A stretch of 55,504 nucleotides of DNA from a virus (taxonomy: Duplodnaviria; Caudoviricetes): IMG/VR virus record IMGVR_UViG_3300027749_000136, positions 1 through 55,504 of that record; one strand, given 5' to 3'. The translations under genes were made by a program, and so were the position numbers. Positions 28,301-55,504 of the stretch are shown piece after piece (positions within the stretch are counted from its first letter, which is position 1; every line of letters begins with the position of its first letter). A model generated the notes under the pieces. It searched no databases, was not told the origin of the DNA, and saw nothing but the letters and a program-made list of their open reading frames with translations.

Positions 28301-29653
28301 TACATCCGTTGTAAATGTATCTATAACATCAACATTTTCTTTTGATGCATGACCAAAATTAAACAATTTTAATCCAGCATTAAATTCAATAATAGGGCGA
28401 GTGGCTCGTTGGGCTTGATCTAATTCAGGAACTTGTCCGTTTGCTTTTGCCGATGCAATAATAATATCTTGGTGGAACCATCTATTGTTTCTGCTCCAAG
28501 GATTTCGGTCAATGCTTGCTCTATTGATAACAATATAATCTTTGTCTTTTGGAAAAGAAGTTAGTGTGCTGAACGGTGCTTTATCAAATGGCTCATCATC
28601 AAATAATAATGCAACTTCTTGCGTAAAAGAACTTATAATTTCAAGGTCGGCTTCGTTAACTAACGTAATTGCCGAGCCTACTCCTTCAACATACCAATAG
28701 CCCGTTGAATATTTTTTAGGAGCAATATTACCTTTGAAAAACAATTTCATTCCGTTAGATAACGGAACACCATTATTCATAGTATATGTTTTTTTACCTA
28801 TAATATCTTTTTCTAAATTAAGAAAAGAATTTTCGTCAATATCTTTTACTTGTAATACACCACCTACATTAGGGTCTTGTTCACTAACATAAAATAATAC
28901 ATCAGGTGTATCATTCCCTACTTTAAAAGTTAATGTTCCAATTTCAACTGCACTTGCTGATACTCCTTCAGTATATCTATCTAGCTCACCAGGTGTCCTA
29001 GTTGTTTTTATTGAAAACGGATTATTAGGCGTATTAATGGAAAAATGATAAGTTTGCCCTCTATATAAGGTCAATGCAGGATTACGAGTTAATCCGTCTG
29101 GACTAAAAATATATGCATAAGTATCGCCTTCATCTTCAGCAATGACAGTATACGTACTTTCAATAGCTAATTGTTGGCCTTCTACTTCTACGGGAGTAGG
29201 ACCGTAAGGTAGCCAATAGTACTGTTGAAAATTAACAAATTTATCCCAGCTGATGTGCGGATTCCAAGAATAAAACTCTTGTTTATTAAGTCTTTCGTGA
29301 TTATTTACAATACCACCGGCAACAGAAATATGATTAATATGATCAATATAATCTTTAAAAAATGTAGTATTTCCAAGATAATCTTGTATAACTGCCGCAG
29401 GCTCTAATTGATAATCTTGTCTAGTTTTATCAGATGCTGACAGAAAAACATCTGCCGATTTAACAGATTTTGCACTTTGTCTACCAATAAACCCTGTTAT
29501 TTTTTTAACAGTTCCGGGCTGTGTTAATTGATCTAATGTGGCTGATAAGAATTTTTTATTACTATCGGTTCGATAAAAACGAGGTAATAGATCAGCTGAC
29601 TTTCTATTTTCTCTATTAGAAAGAGGCAAATTTGGTTCGTCTTGATTAGCCAT
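16310..29653 (-). CDS. Giant (4447 aa) multidomain baseplate wedge/virion protein, gp7-like position
   Basis: One uninterrupted ORF directly after the gp6-like gene. It contains FG-GAP-like propeller repeats, GxGY repeats, FxxDG repeats and two WxxxxxYxxG CBM5/12-like motifs. Confidence 0.75.
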   Translation of the reverse strand: MANQDEPNLPLSNRENRKSADLLPRFYRTDSNKKFLSATLDQLTQPGTVKKITGFIGRQSAKSVKSADVFLSASDKTRQDYQLEPAAVIQDYLGNTTFFKDYIDHINHISVAGGIVNNHERLNKQEFYSWNPHISWDKFVNFQQYYWLPYGPTPVEVEGQQLAIESTYTVIAEDEGDTYAYIFSPDGLTRNPALTLYRGQTYHFSINTPNNPFSIKTTRTPGELDRYTEGVSASAVEIGTLTFKVGNDTPDVLFYVSEQDPNVGGVLQVKDIDENSFLNLEKDIIGKKTYTMNNGVPLSNGMKLFFKGNIAPKKYSTGYWYVEGVGSAITLVNEADLEIISSFTQEVALLFDDEPFDKAPFSTLTSFPKDKDYIVINRASIDRNPWSRNNRWFHQDIIIASAKANGQVPELDQAQRATRPIIEFNAGLKLFNFGHASKENVDVIDTFTTDVFSTIEGSLGYNIDGVNLVNGMRVLFTADTDRFVNGKIFKVNFVEISIPGRLIDFVATTGVDTTTSILTFPTAHGLTTGNQIEYRNNGNTNIEGLINGKIYFVVVVDTTKIKLYTDKNLTSQVKLFNTGSGTHKIEVFGGLRRQINLVEDTDSIPVNNETILVKLGNVNQGSMFWYNGHTWQLGQDKISISQPPLFDIFDNNGVSYGNAEVYEGSNFIGTKLFSYKIGSGTNDAELKFPLSYQNINNIGDIVFDFNLLSDSFNYKSLTDVLSKNTNIGYLKIVASIDNFSYQNGWVESTIKNVQPIVRIFKESGLTNDFPIDVYDFKNNLDDLQVKVYINGKRQNKESFVIQDGPIRKKVVLTTPINLTDVLTLKCIATQPKNENGYYEIPLNLQNNPLNKNITQLTLGEVIDHVDTIVENINGFAGTYPGYSNIRDLGNITPYGTRFVQHSGPLNLSLYHFGENSTSIVNALDQARIDYGKFKRSFILFASESGIDTDPRRHVDFILEELAKDKTKTQPYYLSDMFPHSGSTRLEYVVLDSRVKTYPLTAPFNLLQLSNRAVGVYINGYQLVHGRDYLFGDDVFFEILVSLNEGDLIEAFEYETTDGSFCPSTPTKLGLYPAYEPCIYVDNSYLEPTTVIQGHDGSIVIAYNDYRDALILELEMRIFNNIKIKYDPQIFNLYNIIPGYSRTTPYDKTEFDKVLSQYFFQWITNINKDYTSQDNTLWDRLNPFTWNYRENYTADGANTPAFWRGIYRWTLDTDRPDTHPWECLGFSIKPKWWNEVYGPSPYTNNNYILWDDIKNGIIRQPGFPIRTSPQFAKPILATGVPVDENGNLLDPYNAGQVSGYINPTPEGYYVFGDCGPVESAWRRSSYYAFALIETALLLQPNYVLGTCLDRSRIFRNLNNQLVYRDTDLRISLADIKIPSTTFSIDRVFTSGLINYVVDYITSDVTTLVTKYSNDLSALTNKLSSKLGGFTSKPKFRLLLDSKNVSSSGGVFIPDENYNIVLNTSSSVKKVFYSGVVITKYADGYEVKGYNNDNPYFTYYPYTLPGKSITVGGISESFIVWESNKYYAVGKLIKANNQYYRVKISHQSGNIFDNSYYVKLAELPVTGGRSAEFRKAWNADTPIVIGYGTKFKSIQDTVDFLQGYSAYLENEGFVFDEFNPALRNINNWEAAIKEFLFWTTQNWSVGAVLSLSPAASNLVFKSINSVVNNVLDRSFDYQIFKVDGQPLQSNFVNSFREGNTFTLSPSNTVHGIYGATLYLVQKEHVLLLDNTTLFNDIVYDQVPGYRQERIKIIGYISTNWNGSFNIPGFIYDQAILQIWEPWTDYRLGDIVKHKEFYYSANNFLPGTDAFVSDAWVRLDQQPTSRMIPNWDYKANQFADFYSLDSDNFDVGQQKMAQHLIGYQKRQYLENIIQDDVSQYKFYQGMIIEKGTQNVFSKLFDVLSADGMESLTFNEEWAIRVGNYGAVDSFKEIEFKLDESLFKLTPQPVELVSSIDPTVVDFVYRQLPTDVYIKPTGYTNNLWSTNGTVNYLRTPGYVRYEDVKLNIDSLDDILSKDITSFQEGNYVWCAFEERDWNIYRFTKSKFNVESVNYSNKTLTITCDRIPSAQPGDIFGITNSTSIAGFYKVTAVNNRTILIGATITNWVSPFTDQILTFQFYSARAKNVYDSITGELISRGVDNINELIPSSLQPLENIWADDNGAGLYSVYTNVKVFNKKVLADFTPASNAYFGKTIRISPDGSIAVVASINSARIYSKDGKLNSWIAHDVIRPPEISDLSNLNFATDIKFSPDGYWLAISAKTASNVNSSGYNKQGYVALYYRATSINYEFAQVIVSQDEANNEFFGSKLSFAKTLDNTFILAVSAIGYGGSEGKVYFYKQGSGNIIWTTFANPLTSGTNDPDQYGYSISLSANGNIFAASAPNYDNNAGAVYLYRLNSGQYEFIDLIDRSVDSLNLDDEYQFGNSIDISANGKLLAVGAPFATTDSLNDGKVYVFSLGTAPLFDLQQTLISVKTENFEKFGFTVNFMKDDTSLVVFSANGDTARKTIFDTPNYTTFDNSSLQLIDIQIDSGRVDIFDRYNNNFIYGETLETGTTTDFSDAYGSAIAVSNDIVLVGAPNDNDNSGTVLSYTRPVNSTSWKILHQENPRPNAYKIKKSFIYNRTKNELTSYLDVVDPIQGKIPGPADQEINYKTYFDPATYSIGDNVVVNGLPVNVDSGLNWTTAQVGAVWWDLTRAKFLDNQCGNVVYRSTTWNKLYETASIDIYEWIETKYLPSEWDKLSGTDKGDALSISGKSRYGDTVYSVKKKYDTISKSFQSTYYYWVKNSTVVPKSIGRNLSAYNISRLIADPISEGYVCLALTGTDSFNLVNVPSIINSTDYNLTIQYWLVDDRYTGTNAHSQWKVISEHVNTVIPIEIEKKWIHSLTGKDDNDRVVPDINLPFKQRYGVSFRPRQSMFINRTEALKQFIERVNLVLSTRLIVDEYDLTDLKSYNLPPSDMSGEWDLSIDTDAELKFVGVATLQQAVLHPIIKNGRITGATIVNSGAGYVNAPYVVVNSKKQGRNASLRTIINLEGQVIDVKVLNPGEGYLDNSSPYNILTANTILSVRPYTVLVNSDANIFDKWSTYQWIAATLKWERTRGQAFDVNRYWNYTDWYATGYTQFTKIDHIVNNTYELALLESSIGQLVKVKNIGTGGWLLLEQYNNLTTIDYTQNFKVVGRNNGTIQFSNSLYTFNGLGYDSALFDSTLYDNVASTELKIIIETIKNKILVDDLRTEYLTLFFASIRYVLSEQTFSDWVMKTSFVKATHNVGALTQKVNYNSDNLENFEDYIKEVKPYRTQIREYISSYTKLDPSYNSVSDFDLLPIIDSNFKVVPITTKIDSAGIIQSENNVFNSYPWKHWYDNIGFTVQELFLIDGGSGYISQPTVSIQGGFGNGAIAKAYIANGSVNRIQLISGGTGYLKAPLISIEGGLSEYGIAARAAVKIESEVVRSNKITIKFDRITRTYYVTELTETETFVGTGSRLQWPLKFSPVPTTGTNSVKINGVDVLRNEFLLTTKTSTSKGFTSYSGSLTLQTAPAAGEEIVVSYTKNFNHLSATDRINFYYNPESGMYGKDLAQLMTGIDYGGVSITGIGFNISGGWDSLPWFTDSWDGFDAAFDDYIVIAGASTYTYTLPYAPVLNEKINVYINSVRIDDPYFNTYDGVTEQPNGRKIAPANTVMQTIVGNGTTKTFTIPNLTLVINAGDTIIFRKSTSDGSFTPLPGEYDTQLSGGNLAYSTATGLAPDDIILDGDGLITPTSSAAPEEIVPGHITDAVAIKVYQLPTAGSAKIMFKNYIGDGITNVFELAQIPNNLASIFVKLGNNIILKQDVDYIVNWQDKTITLAVAPTDKSILSIITFGVASQDLLDSDYFISDGITTEYITKAPWIDTLGSIVLVDGQAVNYELFRTSESYDSPEKTGIRIVQNIPQGSLITYMITADKNQSASIIKSENFVSDGLSQTLTLSNIIGNSLPLSNNVIVIKDNRVLTPSSSAYFTLTNDELTYNLKKYKENETVMNPANFKVYLDGVELNFGADYIYDVPNVSITINKQVYKQDSTLTVVNFTNAEYTITDDQITFTSTLFAGNVIEVISMFNHNVEDIQRTSEYTVYQNNIIPGTSTYYSYQNVTSGKITLERMVAFDDYVWVIKNGLMLTHSVDYYLDSDLTTIRLKDSVYFSDKIDIICFNDNIVNHSYGYMQFKDMLNRVHYKRISKAKSTRLAKDLLQKDATITVVNGEVLSPPNSELNLPGIIEINGERIEYFSKTGNILGKLRRGTLGTGAPILHRVRTIVLDIGPTETIPYMDKHVVETFISNGSTNSVDLNYNPTSNNSIDIFVGGYRLKKNSYSLFEESNGYPYSPEGDSSFDAEFTVSSNSSTVQLNNTVPENSRIVVVKKIGQQWDTPLTDPTHTSTDIIKFIKNTEAVFSQYLEDKYQYILSSDDNQTLTTDDNDPLELD

Positions 29654-32600
29654 TAATTATTTCCTGCACTAGTTATTGTTTGTTGACTTATTGTCATTGT
29701 ATTTGAGGTTATTGAGCCTGCACTTTTTATCTTACTTGCAGTTATTGCTGATATTATTTCTATATCATTCACCGTGGCACCATTGATAAAAATTTGATCT
29801 TTTTCTGCTCGTATTTCATATAGACTACCAAATGTTAGTGTTGATTGCTTTGGTACTATAATAAAATTTACAATATTTGGAGCAAGTCTATTCATAACAT
29901 ATGTTGATAGTTCAGTAAAATAAAAGTTGCCACCAAAATCCCAATTCTCTAAAGCAAAGAATTCGTTAATTGCAGATAATACTTTTGATTTAACATCGTT
30001 ATCACTGATAACAATTTCTGAATTTTTAACAATTTTAAAAACTGATTGCACATCTGCGCTGGCCTTAGATCCAAATAGTACTTTATACCTAACAGGATGA
30101 TATATAATTTCATCACTTATACTTTTAATTTTATTGAGATCGGATGAAAGTAGATTGTATAAAAAATCAGAACTAGGTGCTAGTGGTTCTGTAATACGTG
30201 TACCGTCTAGCCATTCTCTAAACACTTTATCATAATCTTTAGTTAGAATAAAAACGTCAATTAAATTAGTTAGTCCAGGATCAATACGTGATTCGTAATC
30301 TGCATTATGTATATACTGAAATTTAATATTTGAGCGGCCTTCATAAACTTTATAATTTAATGAAACTACAAACCCTAATGTTAAACTATATTGTTTAACT
30401 ACATTAGTGTCAATGAAATAATAATATTGCCCGTCTACCCCACTGGTTGGTTCTGTGGTCATTATTATAACAACATCGTTGGCATTATCTATCCATCTAT
30501 AATCTTCTTGCCCTTGTTCTATTAAGTATAGTTCAAGCACTACATATTTTGTTGTAGTATTAGTATTAGGATCAACAATTTCTTCAAACAGTGTTGGATT
30601 GTCAACTACGCCATCATCGTCGGCGTCAGCAAAAGTAATTTCAATTTTTTTAGTATCGATGTATCCGTCAATTCCAACATATTCATTTGATATTTCCCAG
30701 TCTCTATCATAAGTAAAAGGAATAATATTGTCGGGTTTGGTATTGATACTTAGAATTTTAATGTTATCTTTAACTATAGTATTAGTTCTAGTATCATAAA
30801 TTTTATCGCTAGCATCAAAATAAAATCTCAATTGTTGATCGCTTTCAAAAATAAATCTTAACAATCTAGACTTAACTGTATAAAATTCAGAATCTGTTGT
30901 GAATAACAATAACCAACTAGAATCTAATTGTTGATTAGAATTATCTCCTTGTTTTCCTAAACTAAAATCACTTGCAGTATTTAAATTAACATTGAATACT
31001 AATTTCCAAGTTCGAGACTCAACATCATATCTTAGACCAAAAGACTTATTGTCAAATATTAAATCAATCATTGTACTGATAATATTAGTGTCAAGTACTG
31101 TTCTCCATGCAGGAATTATTTGACTTAGTATTGCAGTTGACGGAACGATGTCATTTAATACAACAGTTCCTGAGCCGCCTAATAATTTACCAATACCGTT
31201 GTTAGTGCCGTCTCCACTAACTGAAATAATCTTACACCATAATATAGTCGTTGCATTAAAAGGCAAAGGTCCTGTAATAGGCATTAACTTATTAAAATTA
31301 GATTTGTCAAAATAATGAGTATATGTTTTTACTCCAGCATTGTCAGTAGTGAATAAAGATTCAAATTTTACTAAGGCGCTGGGAGTTATAAATCTTAAAA
31401 GTGTGCTAGTATATGTTCCGAGTTTTAGAGGGGCAACAAATCCAATATTAGAACCAATAAATCCTGTACTTTGATTAGTATCGGTAGTTGCATTATACCA
31501 AGAAATCTCAGTTCCTACGGCAATTGCTGTAAATTTAGAATAGTAATAATCTCGTAGTTGTTTTGACTTAAGAGTGTCTAATAATTGATTATATATAACT
31601 GCTTCAATATCTGTTCTAGTACTATATGTAAATCTAAAACTATCATCATATTCTTCTCGGTACAATGCCCCGTCGTCTGCAAATAAATTAGTCTTAGAAT
31701 ATTTGCCTGTTGGGTCTACTAGATCATAATATCGACTTATTCCACTACTTGATCTATTAATAGCTTTAACTTTTATAACTTGCTGATTAACACTTAACGG
31801 ACTAATGTTGTAATCTTCGCCAGTTATCATACGATTTTGTGTATAGTATGTTGCAGGAGCGTTTGCCTTAATGCTAGTGTTTGACTCAGTTGCTGACGAG
31901 TTAGTAATTGAAGACTGCAAACTGAAAGTTATTGATATAGTTTCAGATTGATTATTATTAGAGATGTACGGTACTTCTATAGATATATTTCGCATATCTT
32001 TAGGATTAACTGTATATGCAACTCCGATACTTTGTCGATAATAAGTTCTAAACGAGCCTCTTGGAAGATTTCCAAACACTCCGTCGCTAAACGATAAACT
32101 AACTTTATCATCTGAGCGTGTTATAACACTATAGATATTTCTAATTGATTTTGTTAAACTATTGTAGATAGTGTTGTTGCCCTCTAGAGCTGGGATTTTA
32201 GCCCAATATTCTGACTCTACGCCTGCCTGATCTAATTTATATAACCACACATCGTCGTTGTTTATATTAACAGCATCAATGTCTACAGTCTCAGTTGTAG
32301 ATGGTTGATCAATTGTAAATGTTCCCTGATTTAAAATACCTTGTCGAAAATGGATGAAAAACCCAGTATTTGCACTTCCGTTGCCGCGGCCATCATTTCT
32401 GTATAAAAATGCTAATCTATTACCAACAGCCGGTGGCTCTTCGTAGATATAATTTTCACCTTTAAATGTTGTACTAACAATTTCAAAAGGCAATACTCGA
32501 CCATCTACAGATTTTGAAAAACCATATACCGGAACATCAGTATTCCTGGCTTGGAATCTATATTGTTCTGTAGGTATGTTGTATACTGTAGATTTATCAT

Positions 32601-33120
32601 CTGGTGTACCAAATTGTCTATTAGCAGGTAATGCAGCATTAAGAATTTTAATAAATTGATCATACCAATTTGGATTAGTAGGATCATTCCATGTCACTGT
32701 CTGCCCTGATAAGTTTCTTCCATTAGAATCGTATATAACTTGGCTAGTTGATAAGGTAGAAAACTTTAATAATCCGCTGCCGGCAATATTTCTTTTAGTA
32801 TTATAGCTCAATAGGCGGGCAAGACGGAGAATACTTTCACGACGCTCTGCTAGCTCTAAAAAGTTATCTCGGGCATTTAAATCAATACGGAAAGCTATGC
32901 TTTGTCCCAAGAACGCAATAAGGTCAATTAGAGCAAGGTATTCACTAGATTCAATGTAATCGTTAAAATCTTCAGGATAATTTTCCCTGATATAATTAAC
33001 CATAACTCTGCGAAGATTTTCAAAATCGTAGCTTTGAAAGTCTGCATTGCGGAAGCTTTGGTAAATTCGTGTCCAGTCTTCTGCTACTAGTAATCTATTT
33101 TGTCTATCAGTTGTTGACAT
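29653..33120 (-). CDS. Baseplate wedge protein, T4 gp6-like
   Basis: YDFENLR..YIR..PEDFNDY..SS..LIDL.AF....F..D..ARDNFL..A.RRES...LA..L.Y N-terminus and QNRMITGEDY; follows the gp25-like gene. Confidence 0.85.
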   Translation of the reverse strand: MSTTDRQNRLLVAEDWTRIYQSFRNADFQSYDFENLRRVMVNYIRENYPEDFNDYIESSEYLALIDLIAFLGQSIAFRIDLNARDNFLELAERRESILRLARLLSYNTKRNIAGSGLLKFSTLSTSQVIYDSNGRNLSGQTVTWNDPTNPNWYDQFIKILNAALPANRQFGTPDDKSTVYNIPTEQYRFQARNTDVPVYGFSKSVDGRVLPFEIVSTTFKGENYIYEEPPAVGNRLAFLYRNDGRGNGSANTGFFIHFRQGILNQGTFTIDQPSTTETVDIDAVNINNDDVWLYKLDQAGVESEYWAKIPALEGNNTIYNSLTKSIRNIYSVITRSDDKVSLSFSDGVFGNLPRGSFRTYYRQSIGVAYTVNPKDMRNISIEVPYISNNNQSETISITFSLQSSITNSSATESNTSIKANAPATYYTQNRMITGEDYNISPLSVNQQVIKVKAINRSSSGISRYYDLVDPTGKYSKTNLFADDGALYREEYDDSFRFTYSTRTDIEAVIYNQLLDTLKSKQLRDYYYSKFTAIAVGTEISWYNATTDTNQSTGFIGSNIGFVAPLKLGTYTSTLLRFITPSALVKFESLFTTDNAGVKTYTHYFDKSNFNKLMPITGPLPFNATTILWCKIISVSGDGTNNGIGKLLGGSGTVVLNDIVPSTAILSQIIPAWRTVLDTNIISTMIDLIFDNKSFGLRYDVESRTWKLVFNVNLNTASDFSLGKQGDNSNQQLDSSWLLLFTTDSEFYTVKSRLLRFIFESDQQLRFYFDASDKIYDTRTNTIVKDNIKILSINTKPDNIIPFTYDRDWEISNEYVGIDGYIDTKKIEITFADADDDGVVDNPTLFEEIVDPNTNTTTKYVVLELYLIEQGQEDYRWIDNANDVVIIMTTEPTSGVDGQYYYFIDTNVVKQYSLTLGFVVSLNYKVYEGRSNIKFQYIHNADYESRIDPGLTNLIDVFILTKDYDKVFREWLDGTRITEPLAPSSDFLYNLLSSDLNKIKSISDEIIYHPVRYKVLFGSKASADVQSVFKIVKNSEIVISDNDVKSKVLSAINEFFALENWDFGGNFYFTELSTYVMNRLAPNIVNFIIVPKQSTLTFGSLYEIRAEKDQIFINGATVNDIEIISAITASKIKSAGSITSNTMTISQQTITSAGNN

Positions 33121-40874: not shown

Positions 40875-42649
40875 TAAAAATTAAAGATTTAACGGTTAAG
40901 AACTTTATGAGCGTGGGCAATCAAACCCAGGCTGTTAACTTTGATAAAGAAAACCTAACACTGGTACTGGGTGAAAATCTAGATCAAGGTGGGGATGACA
41001 GCGGTTCACGCAACGGTACAGGTAAAACTACTATTGTTAATGCATTGAGCTTTGCCTTGTTTGGTAATGCTCTAACTAACATTAAAAAAGATAATCTTAT
41101 CAATAAGATTAACAATAAAAATATGTTAGTGACCTTGTCGTTTAACAAAGACGGTACTGATTATCGCATTGAGCGAGGTCGTAAACCGTCAATTATGAAA
41201 TTCTATGTTAATAATCAAGAGCAAAGTATAGAGTCAACTGACGATAGTCAGGGTGACATGCGTGAAACGCAGAAGGATATAGATGAACTATTGGGTATGA
41301 GTCACGACATGTTCAAGCATATTGTTGCACTTAACACCTATACAGAACCGTTTCTCAGCTTAAAAGCTAATGAGCAACGAGAAATCATTGAACAGTTGCT
41401 AGGTATAACTCTATTAAGTGAAAAAGCAGACGCACTCAAAGAACAAATTAGACAAACTAAAGAATCAATTTTTCAAGAGACTGCTGATATTGAAGCGGCT
41501 AAAAAGTCTAATGAAAAAATACAATTAAGCATAACTGGTCTAGAAACTAGACTATCGGCTTGGTACTCGCAACAGAAAACAGACTGTGAGAAAATTACAA
41601 AAAGTATTACAGAACTGCAAAGTGTCGATATTGAACGAGAATTAACACAGCATACTAAACTAAAGACCTACGTGGAGCAGGCTGCTAAAATTAAAAGTCT
41701 TAATAAAGAAAAAGCCACGCTTGAAACTGCTGTTATTCAAGCAGACAAGAGTGTTAACAAATACACTAAAGAAGTAGAACAGTTAAAAAATAAAACTTGT
41801 CCTGCTTGTGAACAAGAATTGCACAGTCATAAGCACGAAGAAATGACTGCTGGGGCTGAAAAGAATCTTGCAGATGCCTTAATTTACTTGCAGGGCGTTA
41901 GCGACAGCTATGCCAGCGTTATTCAAGAGTTAGATGTTATAGGCGATATCAACGGAAGACCAAAAACTTACTATGATACACTAGAACAGGCACTTAAACA
42001 TCAAAATAATCTTGCTAGTTTAGAAACTGCGTTGGCTACAAGACAACAAGAAACAGATCCTTATCAAGAACAGATTGACGACTTACGTAATACTGCTATT
42101 CAAGAAATAACTTGGGATAATATTAATGCGTTAACCGGCATGAAGGATCATCAAGAGTTCTTGTTAAAGTTATTAACCAACAAAGATAGTTTTATTCGTA
42201 AAAAGATCATAGATCAAAACCTTGCCTATTTGAATAACAGGCTAACGTACTATCTTGACAAAATGGGGTTGCCTCATCAAGTTAGCTTCTTAAACGATCT
42301 AAGCGTTGAGATAACACAATTAGGACAGGATCTAGACTTTGATAACTTGTCGCGTGGCGAGCGTAATCGTTTAATTCTAGGATTAAGCTGGAGTTTCCGC
42401 GATGTGTGGGAAAGTCTATATCAAAGCATTAACTTATTGTTTGTTGACGAACTTATTGACAACGGATTAGATGCCGCTGGCGTTGAAAATGCACTGAGCG
42501 TACTAAAGAAAATGGGCCGTGAACGTAAAAAGAACATTTTCTTAATATCGCATAAAGACGAACTTATTGGTCGTGTTAATAATGTGCTTAAAGTTATTAA
42601 AGAGAACGGATACACTAGCTATTCAAATGATATTGAAATAACAGAGTAA
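40871..42649 (+). CDS. Recombination ATPase, gp46/Rad50/SbcC-like
   Basis: Walker A NGTGKT, coiled coil with zinc hook CPAC, signature LSRGE, Walker B LLFVDE and H-loop ISH. Confidence 0.93.
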   Translation: MIKIKDLTVKNFMSVGNQTQAVNFDKENLTLVLGENLDQGGDDSGSRNGTGKTTIVNALSFALFGNALTNIKKDNLINKINNKNMLVTLSFNKDGTDYRIERGRKPSIMKFYVNNQEQSIESTDDSQGDMRETQKDIDELLGMSHDMFKHIVALNTYTEPFLSLKANEQREIIEQLLGITLLSEKADALKEQIRQTKESIFQETADIEAAKKSNEKIQLSITGLETRLSAWYSQQKTDCEKITKSITELQSVDIERELTQHTKLKTYVEQAAKIKSLNKEKATLETAVIQADKSVNKYTKEVEQLKNKTCPACEQELHSHKHEEMTAGAEKNLADALIYLQGVSDSYASVIQELDVIGDINGRPKTYYDTLEQALKHQNNLASLETALATRQQETDPYQEQIDDLRNTAIQEITWDNINALTGMKDHQEFLLKLLTNKDSFIRKKIIDQNLAYLNNRLTYYLDKMGLPHQVSFLNDLSVEITQLGQDLDFDNLSRGERNRLILGLSWSFRDVWESLYQSINLLFVDELIDNGLDAAGVENALSVLKKMGRERKKNIFLISHKDELIGRVNNVLKVIKENGYTSYSNDIEITE

Positions 42650-42909
42650 TGATTGAAGAACTTCACGATAAGTTAATGAAGGAGTTTCGAAGTTATTTCG
42701 AAAACTACACAGACTGGGCAACTAACGAAACTCATGCTGCTGGTAAACGTACACGGACTAACTTATCAGAAATTAGACACATAGTCTTAAAAATGAGGCA
42801 AGAAATACTAGAAACCCGCAGGCTTAAACCCAAAATTAAATCACCAAAATACAAAGCAGAGCAACTAGCTCAGAAACAACAGGCACAAGACGACTCAAAC
42901 ACTAACTAG
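42649..42909 (+). CDS. Small basic protein, histone H1-like Hc1 family-like
   Basis: HAAGKRTRTNLSEIRHIVLKMRQEI resembles the KAAGTRARKxLxExxK motif of Hc1-like proteins. Confidence 0.5.
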   Translation: MIEELHDKLMKEFRSYFENYTDWATNETHAAGKRTRTNLSEIRHIVLKMRQEILETRRLKPKIKSPKYKAEQLAQKQQAQDDSNTN

Positions 42910-42912
42910 TTG

Positions 42913-43350
42913 ATGTCATGGTATTATCAAGAAACTTTAATTGAAACCCTTCCAGAAGAATGTATAGGTTTCGTCTATTGTATCACTAATAACATCACTG
43001 GTCGCAAATATATAGGCAAGAAACTAGCAAAATTCTCCAAAACTACTTACAAAACAGTAAAACAAAAAAACGGCATAAAGAAGAAAAAGAAGATTCGTTC
43101 TAAAATTGATTCTGACTGGCGTGAATACTATGGCTCAAGCGACCATCTAACAAAAGATATAGAAACTCTAGGCGCAGAGAATTTCAAAAGAGAAATACTT
43201 TACTACTGCACATCAAAGGCTGAATGCTCATACATAGAGGCAAGAGAACAATTTACAAGACGTGTTCTCGAAAGTGACGACTACTACAACGGACAGATAT
43301 CTGTTCGTGTACACGGAAGTCACATTAAAGGCAAACAACTAAACGGTTAA
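42913..43350 (+). CDS. Stand-alone GIY-YIG family nuclease with Lys-rich insert
   Basis: GFVY-x10-YIG (GFVYCITNNITGRKYIGKK), YYGSS, conserved Glu helix (SYIEAREQ) and YYN. No C-terminal DNA-binding repeats. Confidence 0.75.
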   Translation: MSWYYQETLIETLPEECIGFVYCITNNITGRKYIGKKLAKFSKTTYKTVKQKNGIKKKKKIRSKIDSDWREYYGSSDHLTKDIETLGAENFKREILYYCTSKAECSYIEAREQFTRRVLESDDYYNGQISVRVHGSHIKGKQLNG

Positions 43351-43790
43351 AGCTCGCACAGGCTAATTTCGTGTGCCGAACAGAAGAAACCTGGACCTAG
43401 TGTCGCAGGGATCCGTAGACTCTTGCCGTTAAGAGCACTCAATCACTATCCTTAACAGGACGAGGATCGCAAAGCTGCCGCGGTTTGATTGTTTAAAGGA
43501 AATACAGGCAAAAAGAGGGAGAAATACCCACGTTTGCAAGCATGTTAGCGTATGTTTGTAGACCGCCGTCATATAAAGACACAGCTCGAGGTACCGGATG
43601 ACCGCCTCTGTAATGCTGTAACGCTAAGTGATAAAGGTGCAACTCAGATAATGTTGATTTTATTTCTTTGCCCGCAAGGGCAAAGTGTGACTGAACAATC
43701 TAGATAATATTTAAATGCTTCGCATTAATCATTATTAAGTAAAAAAAAATAGTTCGAGCGCAAGCGAAGAACAGATGTACGCAGTACATC
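43351..43790 (+). ncRNA. Candidate large structured non-coding RNA (family not recognised)
   Basis: No listed ORF in 460 nt of an otherwise gene-dense genome; at least 10 stems, G-U pairs valid on the + strand, a GNRA loop, and a 7-bp loop-to-downstream complement (TTAGCGT 43545-43551 / ACGCTAA 43621-43627). Confidence 0.7.
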
Positions 43791-43796
43791 ATTAAC

Positions 43797-43802
43797 TAAA
43801 TA
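43797..43802 (+). promoter_or_regulatory. Late promoter TAAATA
   Basis: CTAAATA, 7 nt before ATG 43810, with no SD. Confidence 0.65.
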
Positions 43803-43809
43803 TAATACT

Positions 43810-44859
43810 ATGAAAGTTTATCAAATTATTAAGGAAGACTACGACTTTAGAGTAGGTGATAGCCCTGCTTCAGCAGCAACTGATGTTGTAAAAAGTGCTG
43901 GATCTGCTGTAAAAGATGTTGCTGGATCTGCAGGTACTAGTTTCTCTAACTTTTACAAAGAACTAGGAATAGATACAAAAACTTTAGTAGTAGGTAGTGT
44001 TGCCGCTGGTATAACTGTAGCTGGCCTAAGTAAAATTGCTTCTAAGTATTCTGAGAAGTATGCAACATCGATAGAAAAAAACGGCAAGATAATGAAGTTG
44101 TATGGCGCATGGGGTAAAGTGTTTACCGTTATTGGCTTAGCAATTGCAATATCACAACTATATGCCGAACTAGCAGTAGTAGAAGCTATGTATGTACAAG
44201 GTAAATTGCCTGGAGACGACGGCGGTGCTGAAATGCTACAACAGCACCGCGAGTTTGCATTTGGAGTATTTCAAGTTCAAATATTAACTCCGCTGATAGT
44301 AAAATTACTTAGCCGAGTCATTGGAGCAACTACTTTAATAAAATGGTTTATTCGAGCACTAGGTGGAGTTAGTGTTTTTGCTAGTATGGGTGCAAGCATT
44401 GTGGCAATTGCTGCATCTGAAGCATTTACACGTTGGCTACAAGCATGGTTAGGGTCTGGTCCAGGAAAAGACTTTATTGCAAAATATATATTTGACGTTA
44501 TACGTTTTACAGGTAAACCATTAGAATCGTTCTGGAGCGATATTATGGGATTCTATAAAGGTGCTGATGTTAAGAAATACGGCAGCGAAGAAGGCGCCAA
44601 AAAAGCCAGTGCTGAAAGAGAAAAGAAGAAACAAGATAATGATACTGGTGTAGGAAGCCTGTCAGGTAAAACTGCAAAAACTGGACAAGTTAACGGGATT
44701 GTAGTGACTGATGCACAAGGATACTTGTTGCCGGCATTAAAACTAATGGCTGATCAAGAACTACAGCAAGCTCGTCGTGATGCAATTAAAGCAGGTACAC
44801 CGGACCCATTAGCTAAATTTCCTATACGTCCCGGACAAAAGCTACCTGAAATTATTTAA
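43810..44859 (+). CDS. Late hydrophobic protein, candidate internal/ejected virion protein
   Basis: Several hydrophobic helices; the N-terminus MKVYQIIKE resembles the T4 capsid-targeting sequence. Confidence 0.65.
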   Translation: MKVYQIIKEDYDFRVGDSPASAATDVVKSAGSAVKDVAGSAGTSFSNFYKELGIDTKTLVVGSVAAGITVAGLSKIASKYSEKYATSIEKNGKIMKLYGAWGKVFTVIGLAIAISQLYAELAVVEAMYVQGKLPGDDGGAEMLQQHREFAFGVFQVQILTPLIVKLLSRVIGATTLIKWFIRALGGVSVFASMGASIVAIAASEAFTRWLQAWLGSGPGKDFIAKYIFDVIRFTGKPLESFWSDIMGFYKGADVKKYGSEEGAKKASAEREKKKQDNDTGVGSLSGKTAKTGQVNGIVVTDAQGYLLPALKLMADQELQQARRDAIKAGTPDPLAKFPIRPGQKLPEII

Positions 44860-45098
44860 ATTATAGGCATACCACTTTTCTTAGTAGTTTCAATATTTTC
44901 TTTAATAATTTCGTTGATCAACATTCTATCTTCATACGAATAAATGTGGAAGAGATCTTGACTAGATACTCCTCCTCGCATGTACCAACTTAGTCGAAAA
45001 ATTTCATCTTTTATGCCTTTGGCTTCTTGCGAGAGGTAGTCGACATACTTCTCAATTTCAGAATTTGAAAGTCGCAGAAGCCTTATGCGAAAAAATTT
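44856..45098 (-). CDS. Startless reading frame (gp51-like position), probably translated by -1 frameshift from the gp26-like gene
   Basis: KFFRIRLLRLSNSEIEKYVDYLSQEAKGIKDEIFRLSWYMRGGVSSQDLFHIYSYEDRMLINEIIKENIETTKKSGMPII*. Absent from the ORF track; no ATG/GTG/TTG before 44981. Confidence 0.7.
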   Translation of the reverse strand, partial: KFFRIRLLRLSNSEIEKYVDYLSQEAKGIKDEIFRLSWYMRGGVSSQDLFHIYSYEDRMLINEIIKENIETTKKSGMPII

Positions 45099-45907
45099 GC
45101 TTGATCCAGTGTCACGGTCACAGTACTTTCAGTACCACAGCTAGCGCATTTAACTGGTTGACTTGGAATATTCCAAGCTTCTTTATTTTCTTCTAACTTA
45201 GTTTTAACTAGTTTGTAAGTGTCTCTGTCAGCATTACGCATCCATTCTTCAATAAATTGTTTTTCTGTGACAGTTTGTCCGTCAACTTGTACACTTTCAA
45301 CTGCTGTTAAAAATAATTGTAGCTGTAGTTCTGACAAGTCTTTATAAATCTGATCGATAGTCTGTTGTTTTTCTTCTTCTTTTAACTCAGCACTTTGATA
45401 TAAAGTCTTTTGTAATTTAAAATTTTCTATACTAAAATAATTCATTTCTTCGTACTGTAAAGGACGGATTCTAATAGTTAATGATTCATCTACTGGTATA
45501 GTATTAATGAATTTTAAATTATTAAAGTAATCTAACAGTTTGCCTAACTCAACATCGTAATCATTTTCTGTAGCACAATTACCGCAAGTTTGAGTCACCC
45601 CCATTTTATCGCCAAATGTTGCAATTCTAATAGCAATAAGAATAGCATCAATATCAATACCTGGCATATGTTTAGCATTTTTAATGTACGGACAGCACGA
45701 TTCAATAACTTTAGCTGTAGACTCACCTGTAAATAAGGCATCAGGAGTCTTCATAATGATTTCATCCATACCACTCATGGCAAACACGGGTACATTATTA
45801 TAATCCCCCTGTAATGATCCGGGCTCGTAATACAACCCTTTGCTAGGCAATGAAATAAACACTTTTGGTTGTCTAAAGTATTTTTGTAATGGGTTAAGTT
45901 GGCTCAT
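45083..45907 (-). CDS. Baseplate hub assembly protein, T4 gp26-like
   Basis: ISLPSKG..Y, DIDAILIAIRIAT.G, two CxxC pairs (CGNC, CASC) and C-terminal NFF. The real start is ATG 45907 (MSQLNPL), downstream of TAAATA. Confidence 0.75.
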   Translation of the reverse strand: MSQLNPLQKYFRQPKVFISLPSKGLYYEPGSLQGDYNNVPVFAMSGMDEIIMKTPDALFTGESTAKVIESCCPYIKNAKHMPGIDIDAILIAIRIATFGDKMGVTQTCGNCATENDYDVELGKLLDYFNNLKFINTIPVDESLTIRIRPLQYEEMNYFSIENFKLQKTLYQSAELKEEEKQQTIDQIYKDLSELQLQLFLTAVESVQVDGQTVTEKQFIEEWMRNADRDTYKLVKTKLEENKEAWNIPSQPVKCASCGTESTVTVTLDQANFFA

Positions 45908-45919
45908 AATTAGTTCCGA

Positions 45920-45939
45920 TAAATATATTATCGTATTTA
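45920..45939. promoter_or_regulatory. Overlapping divergent late promoters
   Basis: TAAATA on + (45920-45925) and on - (45939-45934), between the gp26-like and tape-measure-like genes. Confidence 0.7.
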
Positions 45940-45966
45940 TATGCGCAGATTTCACTAGGAAAAATA

Positions 45967-48900
45967 ATGGCAGAAGAAATTGATTATAAAAAATTAGCCG
46001 AAGCGCAGGCAATAGCTAATGCCAAATATCTAAAACAGGGGGGTAGTGGCGGGGGCGGCAAAGGTACCGGAATGGGTGCTATTGACGTAGGTGTTGACAC
46101 GTTTAAAAAAGCAATTGATCCTTTTGGATCTGCTATAGGTGTGGCGGGTAAAGGAGTCTCAGCACTATCTGATGCACTCAATGAAGGCAAAGATGCATGG
46201 CGCGATCTAAGTAAATCTGGCGCAGGTTTTAATAACGACATTATAGGTATGACCGTTGCCGCAGCCGGCTCACGTTTACCATTACGAGAATTTGCAGGAG
46301 TTATAAAAGACAACACAGACATACTAGGACAACTAGGTGGAAGTGTAACTAGAGGTGCAGAATCTTTTGCTAAGATGAGCAAAGGTTTCTTTGAAAGCGG
46401 AGCCACTGACAGTTTAAAACAATTAGGCTATACAAATAAAGATCTAAATGAAGTATTGGCTTTACAAGCAGTTACACTTCGCGGCAAGTTTAAAGACGAT
46501 CAGCAACGTGATGCAGTAGCATATGAAAGTGCTACTAAGCTAGCAACTGAAATGGACTTGATGGCCAAACTAACTGGCAAGAGTCGTGAAGCTCAAATGG
46601 AGCAGATGAAAAAGAATCAAATGGACATGCAGTTTGAAGCTGCCATTAGGTTAAAAACTGCTGGAATGAGTGCAGAAGAGGCTGCTAAGTTTGAAGCTAA
46701 TGCTAGGATGCAGTTAAAAGATGCACAGCTACGCGGCTCAGGTGATATGTTTAAAGAAGTATTTGCCACAGGGCAGATAATGAGCAAAGAAGCGGCAATG
46801 CAAGCAGCCGTTAATCAAGAACAAGCTGAAGCTACAATGAAGCAAGCTAGGGCTAGTGCAATTGGTGATGAGAACGCTGCTAATGCTGCTAACAGAGAAG
46901 CACAACGAGCAGCGGTAGCCGATGCAAATAATACTACTAAATTAGGTATGGTAGCATTAGGTGCTGCTGGCGGTGCCGCAGGTAAAGCACTTACTGACTC
47001 TATGGGTGCTCAAATAACTTATACTAAGAGTTTAGAAGCTACTGCTGTTGCTAATGGATACGATTTAAAAACAAAAGAAGGCCTTGCTAAAGCTCAAGAA
47101 AAAATGGAAGAAGAGGCTAAGAAAGCCCAATCAGGACAAGATAAAGATGGCAAGCAAGTAGATGGAGTGACAAAAGCTGCAGTGACTCTTGAAAATACTG
47201 TTGATAAAGTACGTGCAGGATTAACAGCTGGATTATTAGAACCATTAAACAAAGAAGTTGGCCCTAAGCTAGGAGAATTTGCAAAAAATGTAGATGCAAT
47301 GAATAAAAACTTTGGCGGCAGTGGTAAAGATACTAGTAGAGCTATTGAAGATTCAACTAAGAAAGGTTTTGCAGGAGGAGTTAGCGATAAAACTACTAAC
47401 AGGTATGAACGAGAACCTGGTGCAGGTGGTCCATTAGGTATTGCAGAAAGTGTAGGTGGCTTAGCCGGAGGTGGAACTAGATTATTAACTGGTGGGATTG
47501 ATAAAGTAAATCAATACATGGAGCCTAAAAAACGCCAAGGCGGTTCTATGGATATGACTGGCGGTATGTTTGAAAATTGGGGCAAGGGCGAAATGGTTGA
47601 GTTGCATGGCATGGAAGGTGTTATGCGTCCACAAGATATTGAAAAGATTGTTGAAACTTCACTGGGTGGAGCTAAAAAATCTTTAAGTTCTGCTAGTGCA
47701 GGTGATATTAGCAAATCTATAAGCAATATGCCGATGCCTAAATTTGAAATGCCTAAATTTGAAATGCCTAAGATGGAAATGCCTAAGATGCCTAAGATGG
47801 AAATGCCTAAGATGGAAATGCCTAAGATGGAAATGCCTAAGATGGAAATGCCTAATCTAACTGCTGGTGGTGGAATTGGCGGAGGCATGGGGGGTCTTGA
47901 TTTAAGCAGCATAACTAAAAATCTCAATACATCTTTTAGTAGTTTAACATCTGGTATTAAATTACCAGACATGAAAGAATTATCAATGCCTTTTAGTTCT
48001 GCATTTAAAGATTTTAATCTAAGTTTCAGTTCAATAACCAAAGACGGTGCAGAAAAGATTGCAAAGACTCCTATCCCTAAAGAACCGTTTGACGAGTTTG
48101 GCAGCAACTTTGACGAAGTAGTTGCTAAGATGGCTGCTGATGTATCCGATGCAATGCCATTAGATGCAATGGATCAAAATGCCGCTGCTTTAGAGTATGC
48201 ATCAAAACGTAGAGCAGAACTTGAACAGCTAATGTCAGATGGCCAAGCAAGGACTGGTAAAGAATGGGATGAAATTTTTGACGAAGCAGAGCAACTAGAT
48301 GGTCAAATTGACAAGTTAGTCACAAAGCAGATAGAAGCAATGACCAACTACAGCGATGGTTGGGATGAATCTGGCAACATGATGGATAAAATCAATAGTG
48401 ATATTGTAGAAGCTGTTGGCGGATCTAAATCTAAAATTGCACAAGATAAAATTGATGCTGCGATTGAAGAAAAGAAAAAAGCAAATGAAACTATAGCGTT
48501 TATGCTTAATAACATTGCAGACGAGGACTGGGACGATGAAGCTCAAGCTGCATGGGACGAGGCAATTGATCGTAGAGATGCTGCAAAAGAAAAGTTAGAT
48601 AAAGTTATAGAAGAGTCAATTGGCGATCTAGCAGACGGATTTGATGACTTTGGCGACGGGTGGAATGATTCTGTTGACAAAATCACAGCTGACATAGCTG
48701 ACTCTTTACCAGTAGATACTGAGTTTGGGGATCTTGACGGTGCAATAGCTAAACAAGCATCTATGCAAGATAATGAGTTTGGTGATCTTGACGGAGCAAT
48801 AGCAAGAAACAAACAAGATGATGAAGCTAAATCAGAACTTGCAAGAGAAAGCAAACGCGGTGCAATGAAAGATGTAGTAGCCGGGTCTAGCCCAACTGCT

Positions 48901-54002: not shown

Positions 54003-55181
54003 ATGTCAGAACTACTAACAGGCCGTTGGGCAGAAACAAAAGAAGCACTTCTTGAAGGCCTTCAAGGCACAAAGAGAGCTGTAATGGCATCTACGCTAGA
54101 AAATACTCGCAAGTATCTAGCTGAGAGTGCTAGCACAGGTGCTACTTCTGCCGGAAACGTCGCAACATTAAACCGCGTCATTCTACCAGTAATCAGACGT
54201 GTGATGCCAACAGTTATCGCTAACGAGTTGGTCGGTGTACAACCAATGACTGGTCCAGTTGGTCAGATCCATACACTACGTGTTCGCTATAGCGATTCAC
54301 TTGGTGGCGCATCTGGTGCTACAGCTGGTGAAGAAGCTCTAAGCCCATTCAAAATTGCAGAAGGCTATTCTGCTGGTAAGACTGATGGTTCAGTAACTGC
54401 TGCATCAACTGCATCCTTAGAAGGTGCCGCTGGTAAGCGTTTGAGCATTCAGATCTTGAAACAAACAGTTGAAGCTAAGACACGTAAGTTATCAGCTCGC
54501 TGGACATTCGAAGCTGCTCAAGATGCACAAGCCCAACAAGGTATTGACATCGAAGCAGAAATCATGGCTGCTCTTGCACAAGAGATCACAGCTGAGATTG
54601 ACCAAGAGATCATTGCATCTTTGACTACACTAGCTGGTTCACAGAACACAGCAGCGTATGACCAAGCTGCCGTATCTGGTACTGCTACATTCGTTGGTGA
54701 CGAACACGCTGCTTTAGCTGTTCAGATCAACCGTGTTGCTAACCGTATCGCTCAGCGCACACGTCGTGGCGCTGGTAATTGGGCCGTTATCGGACCAACA
54801 GCATTGACAATCCTACAATCTGCTACTACAAGCGCATTTGCTCGTACAACAGAAGGTACATTCGAAGCACCTACAAACACTAAGTTTGTTGGTACATTGA
54901 ACAATGCTATGAAGATTTATGTTAACACATATAGCGCATCTGACACAACACCAGTGTTGATCGGATACAAAGGTGCTAACGAGTCTGACGCAGCAGCATT
55001 CTATTGCCCATACATTCCATTGATGAGCAGTGGTGTTGTTCTAGATCCAAGCACATTCGAACCAGTCGTATCATTCATGACACGTTATGGTTATGTAGAG
55101 TTAAGCAACACTGCTTCTTCTCTAGGTAATGCAGCTGACTATCTAGGTACTGTAACTATTGCTAACGCAGTATTCAGTTAA
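54003..55181 (+). CDS. Major capsid protein, T4 gp23-like
   Basis: GVQPMTGPVG, AKTRKLSARWTFEAAQD, EITAEIDQEI, FYCPYIPL and TRYG. Confidence 0.96.
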   Translation: MSELLTGRWAETKEALLEGLQGTKRAVMASTLENTRKYLAESASTGATSAGNVATLNRVILPVIRRVMPTVIANELVGVQPMTGPVGQIHTLRVRYSDSLGGASGATAGEEALSPFKIAEGYSAGKTDGSVTAASTASLEGAAGKRLSIQILKQTVEAKTRKLSARWTFEAAQDAQAQQGIDIEAEIMAALAQEITAEIDQEIIASLTTLAGSQNTAAYDQAAVSGTATFVGDEHAALAVQINRVANRIAQRTRRGAGNWAVIGPTALTILQSATTSAFARTTEGTFEAPTNTKFVGTLNNAMKIYVNTYSASDTTPVLIGYKGANESDAAAFYCPYIPLMSSGVVLDPSTFEPVVSFMTRYGYVELSNTASSLGNAADYLGTVTIANAVFS

Positions 55182-55256: not shown

Positions 55257-55314
55257 GACTTACACAGGGTAAGTTTTATGCGGAAATCCAACCGCGTACA
55301 GCCTAGAACGCTGT
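55257..55314 (+). other. Three-hairpin 5' leader of the post-capsid gene
   Basis: GACTTAC/GTAAGTT, TATGCGG/CCGCGTA and CAGC/GCTG stems, nearly abutting. Confidence 0.55.
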
Positions 55315-55335
55315 CTTTCTTAAGGAGAAAACAAA

Positions 55336-55504
55336 ATGGGACGTCCTTTAAACAAAAAATATTTTGGTAACCGTAATATTGGTTCCGCAAGCACAACAGC
55401 TGATGATAAGATCGGTGGTGAAGGCATAGCAAGTATCAGTGTAGCAACAGCTGGTAGCTTTACTGTTAACAACACTTACAAAAACTTTCCACTATTAAAT
55501 ATTG
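55336..55504 (+). CDS. Late virion protein, N-terminal fragment (3'-truncated by window)
   Basis: SD AAGGAG and ATG 55336; MGRPLNKKYFGNRNIGSAST... is open to the window end. Confidence 0.75.
   Translation, partial: MGRPLNKKYFGNRNIGSASTTADDKIGGEGIASISVATAGSFTVNNTYKNFPLLNI

Follow-up and report, generated by a model that had tools for sequence, protein, structure and literature searches.

Among described RNAs, the closest to the one considered here is Polynucleobacter-1 (Rfam RF01718), a 141-nucleotide (nt) element catalogued in 2010 whose role is unexplained and which is described as sitting in the 5' leaders of genes that share a conserved domain. GOLLD and ROOL are big, multiply pseudoknotted, phage-borne RNAs of unexplained function, known from comparative genomics alone; the OMEGA systems pair a TnpB or IscB nuclease with an omega RNA; and the RNAs of type III toxin-antitoxin systems (ToxI and its phage mimics) are pseudoknotted, lie beside a nuclease gene and carry direct repeats that are identical because one protein reads them. 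Here we consider a 55.5-kb stretch of viral DNA (IMG/VR record IMGVR_UViG_3300027749_000136, 55,504 nt, hereafter the window), a fragment of an uncultured freshwater T4-like phage (CheckV completeness 15%) that carries genes for gp47- and gp46-like recombination nucleases, a gp20 portal and a baseplate protein. In this fragment, positions 43351 to about 43790 on the + strand appear to be the gene of a large stand-alone RNA, the full-length form of Polynucleobacter-1: the catalogued element is the 5' portion of a ~440-nt RNA that contains three pseudoknots, and the newly added 3' part displays one short word twice.

Positions 43351–43494 (+) match RF01718 over the whole model (positions 1–141 of 141) at 90.9 bits against a cut-off of 37, the freshwater setting agrees with that of the family, and four relatives (L415, L022, L400 and L052) likewise exceed the cut-off with the full model. 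The helices of the model are retained by compensatory change, with P1, P2, P4 and P4b covarying among 111 sequences, but the model stops after the 5' third of this conserved unit; a second domain, its two pseudoknots, the twin boxes and three end hairpins all lie outside it. A first-pass annotation, made from the letters of the window alone, had described a candidate RNA of no known family and proposed a search of Rfam. With that search run, the description fails for the first 144 nt, a full-length RF01718 match, and stands for the remaining ~300 nt, in which no Rfam family exceeds its cut-off. A permissive Rfam scan of 43200–43900 (expectation value, E, ≤10) gave further matches that were all sub-threshold, the best being CRISPR-DR57 (21 bits against a cut-off of 39, − strand) and cow-rumen-2 (RF02947) at 43532–43636; the latter shows a weak local likeness in a UUAGC-loop hairpin, CCGCC, GGAUGACC and GUAA, but 19.7 bits against a cut-off of 66 (E = 0.47) are too few to place the RNA in that family or to indicate homology. 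The same scan returned no group I or group II intron, RNase P RNA, transfer-messenger RNA or known self-cleaving ribozyme, and neither GOLLD nor ROOL, than which the present RNA is also smaller. ARAGORN found nothing in the whole window, and no split gene flanks the unit.

Relatives were gathered in four ways, through a domain-1 pattern, the downstream protein, a domain-2 pattern and the protein of the upstream GIY-YIG nuclease gene (GIY), and a profile found the RNA in 211 fetched loci in addition to the window (148 at an earlier stage). Searches with nhmmer from the single window sequence recovered 43495–43700 from 44 of the first 125 loci, in many cases at a higher score than the Rfam part, and 43701–43809 from 13 loci. 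Among 156 unique sequences, a part of which was read, four features are common 3' of box 2: a CTTCG hairpin, an A-rich spacer, a GAGCG-NNN-GCGAA hairpin and a last hairpin, which often precedes T-rich sequence and an ATAAATA-like motif. We therefore place the unit at 43351 to about 43790 (+), with a probable 3' end at the last hairpin. These ends agree well with those of the first-pass annotation, 43351 and 43790, and the homologs, which it had proposed to collect, support its suggestion of a functional + strand RNA of ~350–440 nt. The window's own + strand tail did not score as a terminator, the sole terminator-like site being on the − strand; no sigma-70-like promoter was found in 42500–43950, and blastn of 42600–45000 against cultured phages gave no match. 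A domain-2 motif scan of genome contigs returned mostly chance matches in high-GC bacteria, the genuine matches being short contigs from metagenome-assembled genomes (L152, L155, L166, L171, L205, L218 and L229).

The gap that holds the unit runs from the stop of the open reading frame (ORF) at 42910–43350 to an ATG at 43810 (43351–43809, 459 nt). As had been noted in the first pass, it is the longest intergenic gap in the window, judged by a list of ORFs of at least 80 amino acids (aa), and it is GC-richer, with a GC content of 0.47 over 43325–43624 against about 0.27–0.43 in the flanks. The accompanying statement that it holds no listed ORF is true only loosely: short ORFs are present, for example 43552–43707 (51 aa), and none is conserved. 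An ATG-initiated ORF of at least 50 aa on either strand occurs in 24 of 111 related RNAs. A coding reading was ruled out, there being no conserved ORF and the TAA or TGA of the box core (see below) being missing from divergent cores.

The fold rests on a main set of 111 sequences (the window and the 110 representatives left when 158 were thinned on shared 9-mers) and on a second, independent and tool-counted alignment of 29 sequences over domain 2; the structure was drawn in part from the same sequences, and four rows have hand-estimated ends. In the main set, helices P1, P2, P4, P6, P7, P7a and P8 are 90–100% canonical with several pair types each (Table 1). Examples from domain 1 are the pairs 43358–43374 (AU in 76 sequences, GC in 33), 43444–43487 (CG in 60, AU in 30, UA in 8) and 43470–43480 (CG in 55, GC in 35), and the small 5' pseudoknot PK0 is represented by 43352–43363 (GC in 86 and AU in 22 of 111, 97% canonical). 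In domain 2, which also holds the near-invariant stretch AGGTACCGGAYRACCGCC, the 29-sequence alignment has 88.8% of cells paired against 73.8% in shuffles, double-sided changes in 31 of 39 pairs (PK1 and PK2 included) against a shuffled mean of 19.7, and a covariation score of 0.472 against 0.189 for shuffled and 0.06–0.11 for slid partners; none of 500 shuffles reached the observed values. PK1, proposed in the first pass as a candidate 7-bp pseudoknot TTAGCGT/ACGCTAA, changes on both sides at all seven of its pairs, with 94% of cells paired in the smaller alignment and 89–100% canonical pairs in the larger (43550–43622, GC in 88 and AU in 21; 43549–43623, CG in 99 and UA in 12). PK2 varies in the same manner (43570–43600, UA in 68 and CG in 43; 43571–43599, GC in 70, AU in 31 and GU in 10, of 111), and the pairs of P8 are 95–100% canonical, 43669–43682 occurring as UA (66), AU (18), CG (7), UG (7), GU (5) and GC (3). 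G-U pairs are abundant and fit the + strand only (43465–43485 is GU in 109 of 111), which together with the orientation of the Rfam match supports the strand assigned earlier.

Most of the stems drawn by eye in the first pass hold up well, since covariation backs GCACA/TGTGC, CCTG-GAC/GTC-CAGG, CAATCA/TGATTG, ACAGC/GCTGT, GAGG/CCTC and the GNRA-loop hairpin. Others need amendment. The outer pairs of CTCTT/AAGAG covary and its inner pairs have no such support; the stem given as 13 bp covaries but is really 12 bp long, its last base belonging to the pseudoknot; GGG/CCC has the moderate support listed in Table 1; and CGG/CCG (43595–97/43602–04) is invariant, competes with the covarying PK2 and is replaced by it. 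Towards the 3' end, the stem of the hairpin at 43715–43725 varies in step around a constant CTTCG (variants ACTGCTTCGCAGT, AACGCTTCGCGTT and TTGCGCTTCGCGCAA), the hairpin at 43752–43772 is retained even where the next gene is on the other strand, and the ATAAATA-like motif lies between the last hairpin and the next gene. On the strength of sequence comparison, the extent and fold of a real, multiply knotted + strand RNA can be regarded as established.

Table 1. Features of the full-length RNA and the adjoining gene in the window (by-eye readings refer to 156 unique downstream regions, part of which was read)
Feature	Position	Strand	Sequence and support
Domain 1, Polynucleobacter-1 motif	43351–43494	+	RF01718 match, covariation
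PK0, small 5' pseudoknot	43351–53/43362–64 (in P1 loop)	+	covariation
P1	43356–76	+	GCACA/TGTGC, covariation
P2	43390–409	+	CCTGGAC/GTCGCAGG, covariation
P3	43420–35	+	CTCTT/AAGAG, covariation for outer pairs only
P4, long-range stem	43440–45/43486–91	+	CAATCA/TGATTG, covariation; two further hairpins inside
Domain 2, pseudoknotted core	43507–43627	+	outside every Rfam model; covariation
P5	43517–19/43527–29	+	GGG/CCC, moderate support (63–67% of sequences paired, 29-sequence alignment)
P6	43532–43/43552–63	+	covariation
PK1	43545–51/43621–27	+	TTAGCGT/ACGCTAA, covariation
PK2	43568–72/43598–602	+	covariation
P7	43581–85/43615–19	+	ACAGC/GCTGT, covariation
P7a	43588–91/43605–08	+	GAGG/CCTC, covariation
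Twin box 1	43640–43654	+	CAACTCAGATAATGT, core 43646–52 AGATAAT
P8, hairpin between boxes	43666–43685	+	CTTTGCCC-GCAA-GGGCAAAG, GNRA loop; U-rich tract 5', no U-run 3'
Twin box 2	43696–43710	+	CAATCTAGATAATAT, core 43702–08 AGATAAT
Small hairpin ATGCTTCGCAT	43715–43725	+	by-eye reading
Hairpin GAGCG-NNN-GCGAA (window: GTTC GAGCGCAAGCGAA GAAC)	43752–43772	+	by-eye reading; outer stem varies in step
Last hairpin GATGTAC-GCA-GTACATC	43774–43790	+	by-eye reading; stem varies in step; many relatives with T-rich tail
GIY-YIG (SegE-type) nuclease gene, 146 aa	42910–43350	+	PF19835, 115.5 bits, residues 4–130; PHROG 447

The 3' part of the RNA carries two direct repeats, the twin boxes, on either side of hairpin P8. 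In all 111 RNAs of an unbiased alignment, the four variable columns of the core read the same in box 1 as in box 2, the columns themselves being A or G (49/62), G, C or A (104/6/1), A or G (68/43) and U, A or G (90/18/3). A regular expression that left the variable positions free found identical boxes in 190 of 190 loci; it fixed the frame of the box (three A positions, one T, and CTC or TCT before the core), and at these positions identity arises by construction. Ten core variants occur among 161 unique RNAs, and eight divergent loci, read by eye, have other cores (AGACGAA, ACATGAA, AGCAGAAG, AGGATAAT and GTGTCAAGT) that again match within each locus. Of single-box forms there is no instance among the loci missed by the expression that are uncut at the boxes (9 of 22), all nine of which keep both. 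Mapped on a tree of the remaining RNA sequence, the core columns show at least 23, 6, 10 and 16 changes, counts that tree error and recombination may inflate, with 0 mismatches in 111; they change as often as helix base pairs do. Outside the core the two boxes differ, in the standard frame, by CTC → TCT before it, a difference that the search pattern fixed, and mostly by G → A after it; of 159 modules, 82% have a transition at that free position. Pairing with either box would be open to a single partner strand that carried GGG and U. The boxes lie 47–61 nt apart, without phasing and with two outliers at 74 and 79.

Repeats that agree by identity invite a reading at the level of DNA, given that recombination cores and iterons follow an identity rule and not complementarity. 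The unit might be a replication origin or recombination site, with iteron-like or core-like boxes and a transcript that primes DNA synthesis; it lies 3' of the recombination genes gp47 and gp46, a T-rich tract runs between box 1 and the hairpin, and the missing intermediate box states, to which we return below, would suit a copying mechanism. We nevertheless judge this very unlikely. The cumulative GC-skew minimum of the window falls at about 38–39 kb, where genes diverge, 4.5 kb away, and there is no sign of an origin at the RNA; the box spacing lacks phasing, heavy RNA covariation would be superfluous for a DNA site, differences between the boxes that consist of transitions suggest wobble at the RNA level, and no initiator or recombinase is found as a constant neighbour.

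The constant neighbour is instead the gene upstream, a GIY-YIG nuclease whose stop codon abuts the start of the RNA. Where a locus has room, a GIY homolog lies upstream on the same strand within 1.5 kb in 117 of 120 cases, adjacent to the RNA in 106 and 200–900 nt away in 11, and in the first set of loci it is the nearest upstream ORF in 41 of 47. Gene order is kept, as gp47, gp46, variable genes, GIY, the RNA, variable genes, baseplate and portal. The protein is 142–146 aa long across loci, which leaves no room for a DNA-binding domain, and is strongly conserved (81% mean column identity over 21 homologs, even beside diverged RNA classes; 74–96% identity between the window's protein and 20 relatives), with G20, V22-Y23, Y34-I35-G36, R94, E110, E113 and N127 invariant in the 21 homologs. 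An AlphaFold2 (AF2) model (predicted local distance difference test score, pLDDT, 78) has weak best fold matches in the PDB (E 0.2–0.3), which are GIY-YIG proteins, among them the I-TevI catalytic domain (probability 0.87–0.94, E 0.3, weak); a PDB sequence search with the protein gave nothing significant. The gene has at least 595 close relatives among the viral contigs scanned, and relatives at below 60% identity in 498 cultured-phage records, of which the two opened, Melnitz (48% identity) and P-HM1 (40%), show no such RNA 3' of the GIY relative.

The association has exceptions. In two loci (L020 and L054) the slot is taken by a PD-(D/E)XK nuclease (PF24608, 102.8 bits) of 173–188 aa (L020:3963–4484; in L054 the ORF just 5' of the RNA), assigned to PHROG 244, named RusA-like resolvase, which sits between an Hc1-like gene and the RNA; a third locus (L316) has no nuclease at the slot. 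In six loci of the first set an extra ORF separates the GIY gene from the RNA. As far as gene content can tell, then, the nuclease is established as a constant but replaceable neighbour of the RNA. The extra ORFs are of several kinds, 257–259 aa in L017, L065 and L079, 266–272 aa in L024 and L097, and 88–93 aa in L362, L389 and relatives; neither of the longer kinds matches Pfam or PHROG, and a CxxC motif is present in the short kind.

This neighbourhood raises the prospect of an RNA-guided or RNA-assisted nuclease, in which the GIY-YIG protein would bind the RNA and the twin boxes would serve as guides to DNA or RNA, the two forming an OMEGA-like pair. With OMEGA the locus shares a small nuclease gene that abuts a structured RNA of several hundred nt with a short variable word; the protein has no space for a DNA-binding domain of its own (the Pfam match spans residues 4–130), gene and RNA abut on one strand in most loci, purifying selection on the nuclease is strong, also where the adjoining RNA is of a diverged class, and the boxes are variable words under strict identity, as guides would be. 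The locus differs from OMEGA in that the fold is GIY-YIG, the nuclease can be swapped or absent, the word is present twice, and neither transposon ends nor a target match were found. Co-occurrence is not constant, the same RNA lying behind PD-(D/E)XK nucleases or none; the GIY gene may stand several hundred nt away or behind an intervening ORF; GIY relatives lack the RNA in Melnitz and P-HM1; box states and GIY residues show no co-variation, with no link above background; and searches in cis and in the complete phage genome G003 gave no matching target. On balance we regard such a pair as improbable. A bolder version, in which the boxes would be programmable words and the RNA would recruit whichever nuclease is adjacent (GIY-YIG or PD-(D/E)XK) to matching nucleic acids, seems to us a long shot; if true, giant freshwater phages would harbour a novel type of RNA-directed nuclease system, whose scaffold resembles no CRISPR or OMEGA RNA. 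The locus also differs from the type III toxin-antitoxin RNAs, in that only a core of 7–9 nt is repeated, in two otherwise different modules, and the repeats lie 3' of the nuclease gene, which is of DNA-endonuclease type.

Adjacency may, alternatively, say nothing about function, if selfish homing-endonuclease genes have settled beside a conserved phage RNA gene, much as T4 segB sits among tRNA genes. Such an account would be compatible with the stand-alone RNA that we favour. Two unrelated nuclease folds are found at the one slot, the GIY protein falls in a SegE-type Pfam family and its PHROG relatives are called homing endonucleases, and extra ORFs have been inserted between gene and RNA at some loci. 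The GIY gene, however, is nearly fixed (117/120) and its relatives are too well conserved to resemble decaying selfish genes, and the slot is syntenic between gp46 and the baseplate genes and immobile. We consider this account unlikely.

Loci fetched through the GIY protein alone (with at least 420 nt downstream) contain the RNA in 61 of 73 cases, and 11 of the other 12 loci hold a non-coding region of ~450 nt to which nhmmer and Rfam are blind. Of the five among these 11 that were read further, four show twin boxes, hairpin and end hairpins, and L396 is uncertain. Regions of this sister-like kind, ~450 nt of non-coding sequence 3' of close GIY homologs (73–83% identity), can be sorted into type B (L350, L376, L362, L389, L398, L399, L402 and L403), type C (L385 and L404) and type D (L396). 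The family profile gives no match in them, nor does Rfam in the six scanned (L350, L376, L362, L385, L404 and L396). In the loci read, twin boxes, hairpin and end hairpins are all retained in types B and C, and in type D the boxes are uncertain; types C and D keep a GGTACCG...AACCGCC stretch. Types B–D look like unlisted sister classes of the RNA.

A table of the 2010 catalogue (Weinberg et al. 2010, PMC2864571) marks Polynucleobacter-1 with 'y' in two columns. At the loci examined here the arrangement of a 5' leader is absent, the constant neighbour being upstream and the nearest downstream ORFs of 44 loci forming 20 clusters and occurring on either strand; with downstream genes so diverse in kind and orientation, the RNA is not a leader of the next gene. 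The two columns are, we assume, those headed 'RNA?' and 'cis-regulatory?', and if so the catalogue came near to a reading in which the unit is a cis-acting untranslated region that acts on the GIY message, at the level of its stability, termination or translation, or on read-through to the next (late) gene. The position of the RNA, which begins at the GIY stop and ends in hairpins just before the ATAAATA-like motif and the next gene, is what such a region would show. Still, a length of ~440 nt, three pseudoknots that covary and single-stranded stretches that hardly vary go far beyond what known stabilisers and attenuators need, the downstream genes differ and are often on the other strand, the unit persists where the upstream gene is swapped or absent, and a search in cis gave the boxes no alternative partner to pair with. 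We think it improbable that the unit acts in this way.

Traces of expression come from public data. Part of the stretch is present in twenty runs with freshwater or lake metagenome labels; six of them are metatranscriptomes, with 17–31% of the sampled words. RNA-library contigs cover stretches of the GIY gene and of the RNA at low depth, and those of two studies span the GIY/RNA junction (43077–43423 and 43327–43588). These junction-spanning contigs, which have no mapped ends, fit co-transcription of GIY and the RNA, if weakly.

The reading that we prefer, to which we give an even chance of being right, is that of a stand-alone RNA or ribonucleoprotein whose knotted body is a scaffold and whose two tails present a single word to a common reader, most probably through pairing at the RNA level. 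The RNA would probably be made as a 3' extension of the GIY transcript and end at the last hairpin. Its two domains, locked by three pseudoknots, would form a rigid scaffold, probably for a protein partner, and its 3' part would display the word twice, each copy on an unpaired tail that follows a helix, PK1 in the case of box 1 and P8 in that of box 2. Both copies would then be read by one partner, which is most likely a nucleic acid because the box differences replace pyrimidine by pyrimidine and purine by purine, exchanges that a G- or U-bearing strand can tolerate. The neighbouring nuclease would not be a required subunit. In the search for a partner, exact and near box complements occur at chance level in the window, and in the whole records G001–G010 the wobble-complement pattern is no commoner than its control. 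A cluster of possible partners near 43469–43491, present in 36 of 161 RNAs, was rejected, since it is an invariant U/G-rich strand of P4 without covariation.

Several observations speak against a stand-alone scaffold with a common reader. Intermediate states, in which for example one box has A where its twin has G, number 0 in 111 sequences; a common reader would need triple changes, and the missing intermediates are a better fit to direct coupling or copying than to slow co-evolution. No box partner was found in cis between −500 and +250 nt (8-mers with wobble allowed, in 161 RNAs; 12-mers without a consistent place), nor in the complete 347-kb genome G003, where wobble-complement counts equal those of the control pattern. 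Third, exact copies of a phage's own box, 12–13 nt long, occur far from the RNA in three records (G001:C1:62634–62646 and G002:C1:200580–200592 for box 2, G004:C1:87818–87829 for box 1) and in the complete genome G003 there is none; the G001 copy, the one read, lies inside an ORF, and all may be due to chance. The tight abutment of the GIY stop on the RNA would also fit a functional link to the nuclease, and RNA-library contigs can carry DNA. Finally, the comparison of folding energy with shuffled controls, set as a test in the first pass, came out unremarkable, with minimum free energy z-scores of −0.80 (+) and −0.85 (−) and 18 and 20 of 100 shuffles folding as well; this null result is outweighed because covariation is the stronger test.

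Further features of the window deserve mention in their own right. Between gp46 and GIY, an 86-aa ORF (42649–42909, +) has a sub-threshold match to the histone H1-like protein Hc1 (22.3 bits, cut-off 23.5), and its homologs stand at the same place in 20 of the first 51 loci. At the far end of the window, 55258–55338 (+), just past the ORF at 54003–55181, lies a freshwater-2 RNA (RF02980, 73.9 bits against a cut-off of 49.9). The gp26-like baseplate gene at 45083–46012 (− strand; PF12322) terminates in AAT TTT TTC GCA TAA (45083–45100), and the −1 frame is open from the TTTTTTC run to about 44856, which fits a programmed −1 frameshift. One ORF of 4447 aa takes up 16310–29653 (−), and a 1155-aa ORF comes next, at 29653–33120.

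As to what is new, the 5' third of the RNA is known, as a member of RF01718, and the full-length architecture and the twin-box rule are new to the literature searched. No account of the full-length RNA or of the boxes was found; supplements of a 2023 survey of structured RNAs in IMG/VR lay outside the search and may list pieces of domain 2. Candidates in that survey are reported to be 29–151 nt long, those overlapping Rfam having been discarded.

An element catalogued in 2010 at 141 nt, without an explained role, is thus extended to the front end of a three-pseudoknot RNA of ~440 nt, and the gene association usually quoted for the Polynucleobacter-1 family is corrected. Large, strongly conserved RNAs with no assigned function are seldom met with, and time and again they have opened up new biochemistry. 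In this one, the twin boxes obey a rule of identity rather than complementarity, over dozens of independent changes without intermediates. Such an identity-type signal is unusual, and standard covariation tools are not built to find it; the rule also offers a direct experimental handle on the RNA.

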